IMG/VR virus record: IMGVR_UViG_3300045125_000119
Span: 12,045-76,044 of that record
DNA: 64,000 bases
Strand: one strand, 5' to 3'
Origin: a virus
In this document: positions 37,601-61,102 of the stretch, one piece after another
Numbering within the stretch: position 1 is the stretch's first letter
How the letters are laid out: every line of letters starts with the position of its first letter
The notes under the pieces: generated by a model
Databases searched by the model: none
Seen by the model: the letters and a program-made list of their open reading frames with translations, nothing else
Told to the model about the DNA's origin: nothing
Made by a program: the position numbers and the translations under genes

Positions 37601-38097
37601 TGTCCGCTGGCAACATTATCGAAAGCGACGCCAATGGCTGGCATACGTCCCGAAACAGCGGCCATAGCAATACGAACATTGCCAGAAACCGGAGAAATGT
37701 GAACGGCTTTCAGTCCAGAAATCGGTTCTTCTGCAATGGCAGTGAACTGAGTTCCGCTAAAATACGGTCCTGAGAACTGTGAACGGTTAATTTGGTTCTG
37801 ATATCGTGCAGGACTGACCTGCATGACATCTTTCGATCCGGCCGAGAAGTTAACCGCATTGCCGCCATTGCTGCTGGCATAAATGGTAGTGCGAGTAAGT
37901 GTTAGGGCACCAGAATCGTAGGTGCCTCGTCCGACTTCCCAATCGGTGCCGTCGGTAATACAGTAAGGGGTTTCGTTGCCATTGCCAACAACAGCAAACG
38001 ACTGATAACCAATCCTGCACCGGCCAAAGTTACGGTGCCAGTACCGGTTGTTGTAGTCGTTTCCCAAATCTCTGTCGAATAGTGGTAGTTCAGCCAT
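28674..38097 (-). CDS. giant (~3,100 aa) tail-fibre/adhesin-like protein with pentapeptide xIASG repeats (many frameshifts)
   Basis: N-terminus corrects to DR.WETTTTTGTGTVTL..GYQSF...DWEVG.GTY...SSNGGNAVNFSAGSKDV (common fibre anchor); five globular modules (EE.ISGGRAV..A.ASV.SRMPAIGV); five FLRDDFTW motifs; breaks resume in another frame. Confidence 0.8.
29280..37350. repeat. modular, synonymously diverged coding repeats of the fibre
   Basis: Units SGQVGFGHLANASVQSGTLASGVVSQFHHASGAVNSGHIGSGAVLGQAGGGAFTIASGTIGSLDIGSGAVV and SGRIASGQVGFGHLADGSVQASTIGSGAVV in varying order. Confidence 0.95.
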
Positions 38098-38112
38098 TTC
38101 TCTCCCTACACC

Positions 38113-38118
38113 TATTTA
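38113..38118 (-). promoter_or_regulatory. late promoter core (CTAAATA) of fibre gene
   Basis: 15 nt upstream of ATG 38097, GGGAGAG RBS between. Confidence 0.65.
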
Positions 38119-38166
38119 GAAGTACAGAAGAGGAAAATTGTAAAAGTTTATCCGCTAATTACTTTC

Positions 38167-39531
38167 TTAACATCTGGGAACAATATTGAAAAATAATCCA
38201 ACAAAGAGTCGAAGATTTTGCAGAGTATCGTACATTAGCGTTTTGCAGTTCTCGATCCATTTGTCACAAAACGTGTGCCAAAAGAAATTGGTAAGATACT
38301 GAAAAGCTAACGGCCAATCTGTAGTCATGTTCTAGATACGTCTGCATCCTCCCAAACACAGCGGCGGCTTCCCAATAAAGTTCTTCGCTTATTCCGCCTG
38401 ATTTGCCATTAAGGAACCGACCGGCATTTTTGATCTTGTTCAAAAAGACGCTTGCCTTTTTCCATCATGGCTTCATCACACCGGGTATCAGTCCCGACCT
38501 GATTCAAAGCGGCCCAATACCGAACACCGGCCATCCCGTACTTTTCGATGTAAGTATCGGGGTGAACAAAGTTTCCGGCACTTTTGCTGATCTTCCGGCC
38601 GTGACGGTCGAGGGCGTGGCCGCTAATGATGATTCGGTTCCACGGAATCTGGTTGTTGTGGTAAATGCTCTTGACGATGGTGAAAAAGGCCCACGTCCGA
38701 ATGATGTCGTCAGCGCCTGAAACCGTGCGTCAAAAATCGGACACTTCAGGCTCGGTTCGCCGGTGTGCGACATCCAAGCTAGTTGCGGACTCAAACTGCT
38801 GGTGAACCAAGTATCGAACACTTGGTCGTCGGCTTCGCCCGGAATGTGGATTCCGAACTTTCGCTCACGAGAAATACTCAATCGTATTTCAGATCATCGA
38901 GCCACCGGTGCAATCGTTCACGAAAGTGATCCGGGTGCCATTGAATGCTGTCAATGGCTTCACGCAGCCGTGGCAGGTGATCCATAATGTTGATGAACCA
39001 GCCCTCACCGGTGCGCAATTCGACTTTCGCACCGCTGCGTTCGCTAGCAGCCGTTCTCGTCAATCTCGGATTGGCTCACGGACTCTTTTGTGATCGGGCA
39101 CCAATAGTAGTCACGGACGGCTTTGTAGGCCAACCCTTTCGACTTCAGGTCGTCAAAAGAGATGGCACTGAGAGTAATCGCCTTGCCTTGAAAGGTGTGG
39201 TATTGGTGCTTACTCCATCCCATCCCAATTTTTGCAAACAAGTCAGAGTACATTTCCGACTTGTTCTCGGCGAACTTGATGATTTCCGACTGGTCGAAAA
39301 TGTGTTCTTTGTTAGCCAGTTTCTTTGTTGGCAGACCGTTGCAGTCAAAACAGAACGGATACAACAAGATGTCCTCTTTGGACGGCTTGTGTCGGCCCGT
39401 TTCTTCATCCCACTCGGCCGCATCGTAAAACGGCGTGTACGAGCGATGAAATCCATGTGGCAGTACGAAAAAACGTGCCCCATGTGAAGTTGACCGGAAA
39501 TTGTGGGCGGCGGAACGTCAATAAGATACAT
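38167..39531 (-). CDS. valS: minimal valyl-tRNA synthetase (archaeal-type), ~450 aa, no CP1 editing domain, frameshifted
   Basis: [82 protein letters not shown]. Confidence 0.9.
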
Positions 39532-39546
39532 GATTGCTCCAAAAAA

Positions 39547-39572
39547 GAAACCGGGGTAGAAACCCCGGTTTC
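39547..39572 (-). terminator. intrinsic terminator
   Basis: GAAACCGGGG-loop-CCCCGGTTTC followed by a T-run on the minus strand. Confidence 0.75.
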
Positions 39573-39598
39573 GAGAAGACTCAAAGTTCTATGGACCG

Positions 39599-39841
39599 TC
39601 ACCGGGGCCGCTTGGGTCCAGAGTACGGTACGACTACGGTAGCATAGAACTTGTTCATGAAAGTATAATACCACGCCCAAGCCAATTTGTCAATCTTTTT
39701 GTGAGAACAAGTGAAGTCCACCTTGTTCTTGCCGTCTTCGTACTTGACCAGACAGTTGTAGTCACAGGTCAGTTCGACTTCGATATCTTCCGCCGCCAGA
39801 TCGTAGTCAGTGAAAGTTTTCTTGTCCTCAGATTCGTACAC
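39599..39841 (-). CDS. hypothetical protein
   Basis: 80-aa ORF; start may lie further upstream. Confidence 0.4.
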   Translation of the reverse strand: MYESEDKKTFTDYDLAAEDIEVELTCDYNCLVKYEDGKNKVDFTCSHKKIDKLAWAWYYTFMNKFYATVVVPYSGPKRPR

Positions 39842-39895
39842 CCGAAAAAAGTGTTTCTCGGTGTACGGATTGTGAGAAGAAACCCACGGACGCCC

Positions 39896-40306
39896 TTAGC
39901 CAGTTTTACTTCTTTTTTCATTTTTAGACTTACGTTTGAGTGGCTCGATAAGATTGGGATATTTGTCCGAGGTCAAGTCCAACGCCGAAACGTACCAATG
40001 GCCCGCACGCATGTTGCCGACATCACGTTTTTGCTCAAACAGCTTCACGGAACAGTAATCTTTGCTGCGGTATTCGACGTAATAGGCGTCGGGGTGTTTG
40101 TGACGCAACCGCCCGGTTTCGGTCAGAGTAACGTTCTCGAAAAGAATCTGGTCGGGTACGAACTCGACCATCGGCCCTTTGCTGGTCATGAGTACCTGTT
40201 TGTAGCCGCAGGCAACGGGCAGGCCGTTCGGCGTTGCGAATTTAATCTCTTCTTCGGATCGTGCCGGGATTTTCAACCGCTCGACGTATGTGTTTGGCAT
40301 GGTCAA
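39896..40306 (-). CDS. hypothetical protein
   Basis: 136-aa ORF with GGAG RBS. Confidence 0.6.
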   Translation of the reverse strand: MTMPNTYVERLKIPARSEEEIKFATPNGLPVACGYKQVLMTSKGPMVEFVPDQILFENVTLTETGRLRHKHPDAYYVEYRSKDYCSVKLFEQKRDVGNMRAGHWYVSALDLTSDKYPNLIEPLKRKSKNEKRSKTG

Positions 40307-40354
40307 TCTCCTAATCGGATTGACCTATAATTTAACATCATCTACGCCAATGTC

Positions 40355-40360
40355 TATATA
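40355..40360 (+). promoter_or_regulatory. variant late promoter (CTATATA), leaderless geometry
   Basis: TATATA-TCTTC-ATG (5-nt spacer). Confidence 0.4.
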
Positions 40361-40365
40361 TCTTC

Positions 40366-40761
40366 ATGCAATTTCGTGAATACCTTGCAGAATCCGAATT
40401 CCGATTTGAAGGGGACAGTGTGGGTATCGTCACGGCCCACAATCCACAAGGCAAAAAGCTGTCCCGAAAGCAAAACAAAAAACTGAACGGCCAATTGTGG
40501 ACAGATTTACGAGTAGCGGGGCACGACCCTTGGGCTGTGGCTGGAAATTACCAAGGGCACAAAGAAGACTCATTTATGATTCCCGACATCAGCCGGGAAG
40601 AGTTAGTCAGTTATGCCAAAAAATACGACCAAGCGGCCGTAATTTGGGCCAAAAAAGTCGATCACGGATACGATGTCGAATGGATCGCCGACGGCAAAAC
40701 GACTAAGCGGAAAAATATTGCGAACATCCGCTCGTTGTTGGCTCAGTCAGTTTCTTTTTGA
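40366..40761 (+). CDS. DUF3293-like protein with capsid-targeting-like N-terminus
   Basis: MQFREYLAE; IVTAHNPQG..LS..QN...N..L, E.SF.I, A.KYDQAAVIW. Confidence 0.6.
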   Translation: MQFREYLAESEFRFEGDSVGIVTAHNPQGKKLSRKQNKKLNGQLWTDLRVAGHDPWAVAGNYQGHKEDSFMIPDISREELVSYAKKYDQAAVIWAKKVDHGYDVEWIADGKTTKRKNIANIRSLLAQSVSF

Positions 40762-51590: not shown

Positions 51591-52803
51591 CATTTCCAGT
51601 TGGAGTTTTTGAAAACTTCGGTGGTTCCATTCGGATTGTCCCTAATTTCGTATCCTTGGTTCAATACGGCCACACGAACAGCATCGGCGGCGAGCCAGTC
51701 TTTTGCGGCCCTCAACTTATTTCTGATTGCGACCATCTGATTTATTGCATCAGGAATCAAATCAGATTGCAATCGGAAACCCAAAATATCTGCCATTTCA
51801 AAGACGGATTCTTTCGCAACTCCGGCCAGCCGCTTTAACGGAGTGTTAAGATCGTTGTTCAAAGTCAGCGAAAGCGTCAGTTACACCCTTTTCGGGGCGT
51901 GTCGCAGTTTTTCCTGAAGCCCAGCCCACTGTAACGCTATAGAACCGTCGTCAAGGGCTTCTTTCGACAAAGGTTTTCGATAGTTGGCCTGAAGAACCCA
52001 AAAACGAATCAAGTTCGGATCGACACCGGACTGTCGATACCATTTAATCTGGAAGGCATTGCCTTCAGATTTTCCCATTTTTGGTCGCCGACCTGAACCA
52101 TACCGTTGTGAAGCCAATGATCGGCTAATGCCCGGCCTTCGTGCAAGCATTCACTTTGGGCAATTTCGTTTTCGTGGTGGGGGAACATTAGATCGTTCCG
52201 CCAGCGTGAATGCTCAATCGGGTCCAGACCGAGTGCGTTCGATCATGACCGAGCATTCAAGGTGCCAGCCCGGACGCCCCTGTGGGAAATCGGGTTCCTC
52301 GGCCTTCGGACCTTTCCACAGAACGAAATCCTCGCCCGGCGGTCGGCCCGACAACTTGCCGTAGGTCGGGTGAGACTCGCACCGGAACCGAATGTCCCCG
52401 TCACGCTCGTAGGCGTAGCCGTGTTCGACAAACCAACGAGCGGCGACACGCATGGCATCCATGAGCGGGGTTACACGAGGGTACTCGTCGGCCCGCCGCA
52501 CGTTCAACCAGTCCATGTCTTCGTGATAAGCGGCGATGTACCGTTCGGCGATTTCGGCCGCAGAAACACCTTCCGCCCTCGCACGATTGATGATCTTGTC
52601 GTCTACGTCAGTGAAATTTCGAATGTGTGCGAACTTCCACTTCCTGTCACTTCCACCGCTTGAGAACGTCCCACTCTATGGTAACTGCGGGCGTGACCGA
52701 GATGGCAATAGTCGTAAACGGTCACGCCGCAAGCGTAAAACGTGATCGGCCTTCCTTCTGGGAGGTTTTTGATGGTCCGGCTCAGGGAGTCGTACATTTT
52801 CAT
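51545..52803 (-). CDS. cysS: cysteinyl-tRNA synthetase, compact (~400 aa), frameshifted
   Basis: [53 protein letters not shown]; ORF 51545-51862 supplies NNDLNTP and [23 protein letters not shown]...GT anticodon domain. Confidence 0.93.
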
Positions 52804-59804: not shown

Positions 59805-60988
<1,184 letters not shown>

Positions 60989-61102
60989 CTTACACTTCCT
61001 TATAGGCTTCAACGAGCCATAAGTGACAACCAACTCTTATCCCCACCTTGCGGTGTTTTTACTCACAACGAGTAAGAGCCAGGGCAATCGGAGTTGAATG
61101 AG

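Follow-up and report, generated by a model that had tools for sequence, protein, structure and literature searches.

A phage-encoded family of valyl-tRNA synthetases lacking the CP1 editing domain

Valyl-tRNA synthetase (ValRS) is the textbook 'double-sieve' enzyme: since its synthetic site cannot exclude threonine, editing by the CP1 domain is regarded as integral to it. To our knowledge, the LeuRS of Mycoplasma mobile is the only well-known natural class Ia enzyme without this domain. A gene described in an initial annotation as a naturally minimised ValRS with no editing domain, located in a 64,000-nt stretch of DNA from a very large T4-like bacteriophage (hereafter, the window), therefore raises the questions of (i) whether this gene is intact in the phage; (ii) whether the absence of CP1 is genuine and common to other proteins; and (iii) whether a ValRS reduced in this way is likely to be a working enzyme.

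The mini-ValRS locus and its frame breaks

The gene, here called mini-ValRS, lies on the minus strand at 38148–39531, from an ATG at 39531–39529 to a TAA at 38150–38148. Frameshift-aware alignment gives a read-through of about 460 aa that crosses seven frame breaks and is 67% identical, over its entire length, to the intact orthologue P0001. As had been annotated, the gene starts with its own ribosome-binding site behind a terminator: a GGAG at 39537–39540, read from the sequence, precedes the ATG by 5 nt, and an intrinsic-terminator-like hairpin on the same strand (39547–39572), with an 11-bp stem containing 7 G-C pairs and followed by a T-run, lies directly upstream. The distance from the HMGH motif (39486–39475) to the KISKS motif (38594–38580), previously given as ~890 nt, is 892 nt in the window sequence. 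The early stop proposed in the initial annotation held only in part. The protein does end soon after the last helix-bundle motif, but it does so 34 aa rather than ~25 aa past this motif, as the stop at 38167 is out of frame and the real one is the TAA at 38150–38148.

Several features flank the gene. A near-consensus sigma-70-like promoter on the minus strand (39693–39665; TTGACA, a 17-nt spacer and TG-TATTAT, with 11/12 consensus matches) is embedded in the 3'-terminal part of the upstream ORF and lies ~90 nt ahead of the terminator preceding mini-ValRS; a short transcript or an attenuator is possible. When positions 37900–40400 were compared with Rfam, the interval separating promoter and terminator contained neither a T-box nor another known leader; the only match in this region, to MicX, was sub-threshold (19 bits versus a cut-off of 75). 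On the other side of the gene, a TAAATA at 38113–38118 (minus strand), ~15 nt upstream of the ATG of the fibre gene at 38097, resembles a T4-type late promoter, as had been suggested earlier. A blastn comparison of the mini-ValRS locus with GenBank phages produced no match.

Conversely, the single ORF assumed in the initial annotation does not exist in the window. Frameshift-aware alignment to the intact orthologue places the seven breaks near 39427, 39044, 38878, 38713, 38444, 38323 and 38217, dividing the gene into eight pieces that are spread across three frames, and the ORF table contains no ORF that spans them. To judge these breaks we could draw on four biofilter metagenomes sequenced with Illumina, whose Logan contigs are ~98% identical to the window over 38443–39900. 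The first piece (39428–39531, like all others on the minus strand) comprises the N-terminus with the PPP motif and HMGH, and ends at the break near 39427, after which the Illumina contigs contain an additional G. The second (39050–39427) encodes the first half of the Rossmann fold and continues through the CP core strand as far as ..SQSEIDENG; it stops at the CP1 junction, with the break near 39044, where the contigs are 1 nt shorter. The third (38880–39043) reaches ..DDLKYD and ends at 38878, after which an additional C in the contigs restores the invariant Trp of DWSISRER; the fourth (38716–38878), which lacks the ~33-aa ValRS insertion between IPGE and FDTWF, ends at 38713–38715, where the contigs are 2 nt shorter (at 38713), restoring the invariant His of HDIIRTW. 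The second half of the Rossmann fold, KISKS, the stem-contact fold and the first part of the helix bundle make up the fifth piece (38445–38712), which ends near 38444. The sixth (38324–38443, ending near 38323) is a variable loop of the helix bundle, corresponding to the low-pLDDT loop 377–381 of the AlphaFold model; the seventh (38218–38322, ending near 38217) carries the helix-bundle motif; and the eighth (38148–38216), delimited by the frameshift-aware alignment, contains the last helix and the true stop.

Seven breaks within 1.4 kb might be taken to indicate that the gene is a decaying pseudogene in the phage from which the window derives, its frameshifts being real. We regard this as very unlikely, because highly conserved genes across the same contig, a 146,164-bp IMG/VR record (G000) rated as ~34% complete, are broken likewise: EF-Tu (window positions ~59861–60997) is split into three pieces and CysRS (~51611–52803) into five or more. 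The gene just upstream of mini-ValRS (39599–39921) is also frame-split, and the neighbours of mini-ValRS are split relative to a related phage. Moreover, the indels that distinguish the Illumina contigs from the window coincide exactly with the first four of the seven breaks, which are thus absent from these ~98% identical sequences, and further single-base indels are seen in the flanking genes. The remaining three breaks (38444, 38323 and 38217), which could be held in favour of decay, fall where the Illumina contigs diverge from the window, so that Illumina repair is limited to the first four. Over the whole gene, the read-through nevertheless retains 36 of the 38 invariant and 74 of the 75 near-invariant residues of the family (110 of 113 in total). 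Both missing invariant residues are located at break sites, the missing near-invariant residue, K435, is an alignment gap, and there are no in-frame stops other than those due to the breaks.

The seven frame breaks consequently look like assembly noise, not decay. The split conserved genes, the Illumina repairs and the retention of conserved residues together point to indel noise in the contig and to an uninterrupted gene in the phage itself. Since this noise extends throughout the contig, findings made at the level of ORFs in the window require read-through or polishing.

In the Illumina strain, which is otherwise ~98% identical, two stretches give way to sequence that cannot be aligned and differs in length: 38316–38443, the variable loop of the helix bundle, is replaced by a segment of 160 nt versus 126 nt, and 38007–38243, comprising the C-terminus and the intergenic region before the fibre gene, by a segment of 246 nt versus 235 nt. 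These replacements may reflect a local recombination hot spot or a mis-assembly.

Missing domains and family membership

Mapping the window onto the valS model TIGR00422 locates the missing editing domain precisely. Model positions 72–189 match at 39370–39056 and positions 342–400 at 39051–38881, so that ~150 positions are missing across a 4-nt gap; further matches cover positions 445–467, 487–576 and 633–661. At this CP1 junction (39040–39056, minus strand), across which the Illumina contigs are colinear with the window, a turn of ~4 residues takes the place of the ~150-aa editing domain. A short peptide, ..SQAEIDEEGRYERSG.. in P0001, with a comparable short stretch in the window, connects the two beta-linkers of the CP core, and in the AlphaFold model the strands 129–146 and 165–174 meet in a turn at this site. 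An HMM of CP1 has no match in the mini-ValRS family. Compared with a full-length ValRS, P0141 (824 aa), the family lacks residues 2–30, 192–344 (CP1), 419–452 and 720–824. The C-terminal domain that binds the tRNA body is thus absent, along with the coiled coil seen in bacterial-type ValRS, the protein ending where residues 720–824 of P0141 or 697–862 of 1GAX, the T. thermophilus ValRS–tRNA-Val complex, would start, as is the insertion after the FGIxIP region, according to both profile mapping and pairwise alignments. The absence of CP1 and of the latter insertion, both of which had been claimed in the initial annotation, is thereby borne out.

As the contig is visibly error-rich, the missing CP1 might itself be suspected of being an artefact of assembly or gene calling. 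However, the intact orthologues P0001 (473 aa, from a 532,729-bp contig) and P0002 (445 aa) are encoded by uninterrupted genes with the same junctions, and more than 120 independent clusters of proteins (JGI, ENA, NCBI and Logan) display the same CP1 junction. Within IMG/VR, 12 contigs share it, and the four Illumina assemblies are colinear across it, revealing no segment lost in assembly at the junction. The suggestion that clean domain deletions cannot be due to indel noise is therefore well founded, and we consider the artefact effectively refuted, its probability being close to nil.

Neither does CP1 appear to be encoded in trans. An HMM built from 82 CP1 segments, applied to six-frame ORFs of the source contig and of a complete 533-kb relative (G001), yielded only the CP1 of an IleRS itself. 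Editing factors of the YbaK/ProX (PF04073), AlaX/ThrRS-SAD (PF07973) and DTD (PF02580) types are likewise absent from G000, G001 and G002. Nothing obvious stands in for the lost editing in the 533-kb relative.

What remains of the protein is clearly related to ValRS. Among Pfam domains, tRNA-synt_1, tRNA-synt_1g and, weakly, Anticodon_1 are matched, with a PF08264 match in P0002. The top NCBIfam models are PRK13208 (353 bits, cut-off 738), alt_ValS (254 bits, cut-off 900) and TIGR00422 (229 bits, cut-off 612), followed by IleRS (159 bits). All ValRS scores of the mini family are below the curated cut-offs, a shortfall that can be equated with the missing domains. An identity as MetRS or IleRS was ruled out both by the profile scores (65–75 bits for MetRS models, 159 bits for IleRS) and by phylogeny. 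A maximum-likelihood tree based on 414 shared columns groups the mini proteins with the read-through of the window in one clade (SH-aLRT 99), which has ordinary branch lengths and is nested within the PRK13208-type ValRS.

A word-indexed search gave more than 2,300 matches, the best 120 of which are all 423–492 aa long except for one 644-aa fusion, and many of these 120 are encoded on contigs of 200–673 kb. P0006 (644 aa, JGI) has an N-terminal part of ~160 aa with a match to PF00107 (zinc-type alcohol dehydrogenase), and is either fused or mis-called. An exhaustive search among 50%-identity representatives retrieved about ten mini-type clusters, followed by full-length proteins that are ~40% identical. 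The nearest of these full-length relatives exceed the PRK13208 cut-off and are hence bona fide ValRS. A family member is also carried by the unannotated huge-phage record LR745206.1 (634,780 bp), while the protein of the Illumina strain itself is not among the database matches, the closest of the matches listed being 69% identical. Judged by these searches, mini-ValRS is one member of a large family, not a one-off.

In cells, by contrast, we found no member of the mini family among the best 80 loci from 185,579 species genomes: these are only 30–39% identical, and as they mostly span ~2 kb they represent full-length ValRS, with one CP1-less exception, L050, which has a longer and different form. 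L050:2-1744 (Ktedonobacterales MAG DAIDJF010000086.1, at a contig edge) retains the second insertion, with cysteines, and the full C-terminal domain; it could represent either a paralogue from a cell or phage sequence that was binned with the MAG.

The family can be compared with several known systems. With the PRK13208-type (archaeal-like) ValRS and the structural reference 1GAX it shares the catalytic fold and motifs, the valine-pocket residues and the helix-bundle anticodon domain, and its identity to the nearest full-length protein of this type is ~40% over the shared parts. However, it lacks ~30 N-terminal residues, the ~150-aa CP1, the ~33-aa insertion and the last ~105 residues, and the zinc-knuckle cysteines that flank CP1 are mostly gone. 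M. mobile LeuRS (PDB 3ZIU), the accepted natural precedent for a CP1-less class Ia enzyme (PMC3643597), has likewise lost CP1 completely, a short linker taking its place, while the rest of the class Ia core is intact; its comparison with the mini-ValRS model gives Z 31.3 over 438 residues. It is, however, a leucine enzyme with a housekeeping role in the cells of a reduced parasite rather than an accessory of a phage, and its C-terminal domain for tRNA binding has been retained. Minimal MetRS (T. thermophilus 1A8H/2D54; A. aeolicus 2CSX/2CT8), at ~500 aa, is of nearly the same size and layout (Foldseek TM 0.79, Z 32.2), although the sequence signatures and phylogeny of mini-ValRS are those of a ValRS and MetRS models reach only 65–75 bits.

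CP1-less ValRS also occur outside this family. The cultured 319-kb Stenotrophomonas jumbo phages RAS14 (OP752703.1, L022:2881-4230) and CM1 (OP883945.1) encode a 449-aa 'valyl-tRNA synthetase' (WAX21612.1) that lacks CP1, is short at its C-terminus and contains PPP, HLGH and KFSKS. This protein is only 25% identical to the mini family, and the model it matches best is PRK05729 (314 bits), of the bacterial type, and not PRK13208, which suggests that its reduction is probably independent and convergent; its placement in the tree, on a long branch, is unreliable. As RAS14 and CM1 are cultured, they offer a tractable experimental handle on CP1-less ValRS. Additional CP1-less ValRS of 570–673 aa were identified in metagenomes (P0139, P0148, P0161, P0164, P0208, P0217 and L050). 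These have no CP1 according to the CP1 HMM, intact HIGH and KMSKS motifs and best matches to ValRS, but, unlike the mini family, they keep the long C-terminal domain and, in some cases, the second insertion. In the ValRS tree they occupy at least five separate positions, and the context of P0217 looks phage-like.

A search of mainly open-access literature found no description of a CP1-less phage ValRS. Al-Shayeb et al. (2020) inventoried the tRNA synthetases of huge phages and did not discuss their domains (PMC7162821), and a comparative review of jumbo phages (Iyer 2021, PMC7824862) contains nothing on CP1-less ValRS. The family is already present in databases under a generic name, and its defining loss of CP1 appears to be undescribed.

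Active site, anticodon domain and predicted fold

The residues that would be needed for catalysis and for the binding of valine and tRNA are conserved in the family. In an alignment of 120 members, the residues corresponding to D81, W456, D490, I491 and W495 of T. thermophilus ValRS are invariant and those corresponding to P41 and P42 nearly so; these residues, together with those of the PPP motif, are the ones that we take to line the valine pocket (1GAX). H19, G21 and H22 of the HIGH motif and K307 of the KxSKS motif are nearly invariant, while K310 is invariant. More generally, the same residue is kept at 57 of the 97 positions conserved in full-length ValRS. Conservation extends into the helix bundle, whose motifs carry the anticodon pocket and in which R331, W333, G340, D342, K359, N362, F422, C427, E432 and K435 are invariant or nearly so, in keeping with the earlier proposal that the anticodon-domain motifs are retained.

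An AlphaFold model (pLDDT 94.4, pTM 0.92) has as its top structural match the ValRS–tRNA complex 1GAX (Z 33.6, rmsd 2.6 Å, 454 of 473 residues, chain positions 28–696), followed by A. aeolicus MetRS–tRNA (Z 32.2) and the CP1-less M. mobile LeuRS (Z 31.3). The domain layout consists of a Rossmann catalytic fold, a small CP core, a stem-contact fold and a helix-bundle anticodon-binding domain, the last of these formed by five helices (model residues 347–472) that align with 1GAX through residue 696. HMM mapping, orthologues, model and tree thus all agree with the original description of a ~450-aa phage ValRS close to a catalytic core plus an anticodon helix bundle.

The structural matches to both 1GAX and MetRS indicate a ValRS that has been trimmed to a MetRS-like minimal layout. 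In MetRS this layout charges tRNA, and hence it can be enough for charging. The conservation of residues likewise favours a working enzyme that activates valine and binds tRNA. Binding of tRNA could be weak or dependent on a partner, however, because ~105 C-terminal residues that contact the tRNA body are missing.

Non-catalytic functions are known for truncated paralogues of synthetases, and mini-ValRS could in principle be a catalytically silent pseudo-synthetase that binds tRNA-Val in order to sequester or mark it, or has some other regulatory role. Considering that all catalytic motifs (HIGH, KxSKS, the amino-group Asp and the Trp/Ile pocket) are conserved over 120 diverse members, we find this highly improbable.

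Genome context and proposed role

Mini-ValRS is encoded by the phage alongside tRNAs and other translation genes, both in the source contig and in the 533-kb relative, in the manner of the translation gene sets of huge phages. Matches to the T4-type capsid protein Gp23 are present in G000, G001 and G002. The complete 533-kb relative, which is labelled 'provirus' in IMG/VR, encodes 56 tRNAs, four of which are tRNA-Val (anticodons GAC twice, CAC and UAC). All four have A35, C36 and A73, the canonical identity elements of tRNA-Val. The same genome also has genes for MetRS, TyrRS, CysRS and an IleRS that is full-length and contains CP1 (805 bits, above the cut-off), and a full-length ValRS is absent from it; among the class Ia synthetases found there, reduction is specific to ValRS.

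Among the 56 tRNAs of this relative, three have the anticodon CUA and one has UCA, and ARAGORN labels these 'Pyl' and 'SeC' (121393–121540, 491736–491826, 80837–80930). Possibly they serve as suppressors, which would hint that stop codons are recoded in part of this genome.

The source contig carries, in addition to EF-Tu and CysRS, 13 tRNA calls (genome positions 63311–80666), eight for Leu, three for Phe, one for Tyr and one undetermined, with anticodons at positions 32–37. Their odd geometry may reflect indel noise rather than biology. No tRNA-Val gene was detected among the noisy tRNA calls of this 146-kb fragment, which represents about one third of the genome.

Taken together, we consider it probable that mini-ValRS is a working, proofreading-free ValRS that serves phage translation and is encoded by an intact gene in the real phage, inferring its activity and tRNA specificity from conservation and the predicted fold. 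Such an enzyme would use ATP to activate valine and, almost certainly, also near-cognates like threonine; it would bind tRNA-Val through the retained helix bundle and transfer the amino acid to it. With CP1 gone, mischarged Thr-tRNA-Val could not be hydrolysed by mini-ValRS itself. Together with the phage tRNAs, EF-Tu and other synthetases, it would sustain valine charging during infection, the short cycle of which may tolerate a loss of accuracy. The functions put forward in the initial annotation, namely that the enzyme may be error-prone, a backup or repurposed, are best kept as conjectures from sequence.

Among these, a repurposed or specialised use is the main rival. Val-AMP or Val-tRNA might feed a non-ribosomal process, for instance a tRNA-dependent modification of DNA, of the cell wall or of a metabolite, or the enzyme might charge an unusual phage tRNA or attach a near-cognate other than valine. 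The loss of both CP1 and the C-terminal tRNA-body domain would fit a role requiring less accuracy or less canonical tRNA recognition. Phages are moreover known to use aminoacyl-tRNA outside translation, as in the case of Mu Mom, which modifies DNA using Gly-tRNA-Gly (PMC13219725), and the odd CUA- and UCA-anticodon tRNAs of the 533-kb relative could be read in the same sense. Against this, mini-ValRS agrees with genuine ValRS in both its valine pocket and its anticodon-domain motifs, the genomes around the gene are full of translation genes, and no conserved partner transferase adjoins mini-ValRS in the loci read. We therefore judge repurposing to be quite unlikely, and prefer a role in phage translation.

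A bolder extension, to which we assign a low though slightly higher likelihood, is that proofreading was removed from ValRS by phages several times over, in independent events, because it is useless or harmful in infection, the mini enzyme and phage tRNA-Val forming a private, semi-orthogonal pair. CP1 might then reject or deacylate a divergent phage tRNA-Val, or be the target of a host defence, and the outcome could possibly be a 'statistical' proteome, with threonine or aminobutyrate at valine codons, or a non-ribosomal use of Val-tRNA.

Beyond the single well-known CP1-less LeuRS, these results reveal that huge phages encode CP1-less ValRS belonging to a large family that is both diverse and strongly conserved, and that there are convergent cases, cultured jumbo phages included; in the one complete relative examined the CP1-less ValRS occurs beside a normal, CP1-bearing IleRS. 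This loss is hidden by the database label 'valyl-tRNA synthetase'. Our findings suggest that a minimal, MetRS-like layout may suffice for a ValRS and that relaxed fidelity for valine may occur in phage translation. They also suggest that nature has carried out this domain deletion many times, providing compact ValRS scaffolds of possible use in synthetic biology.
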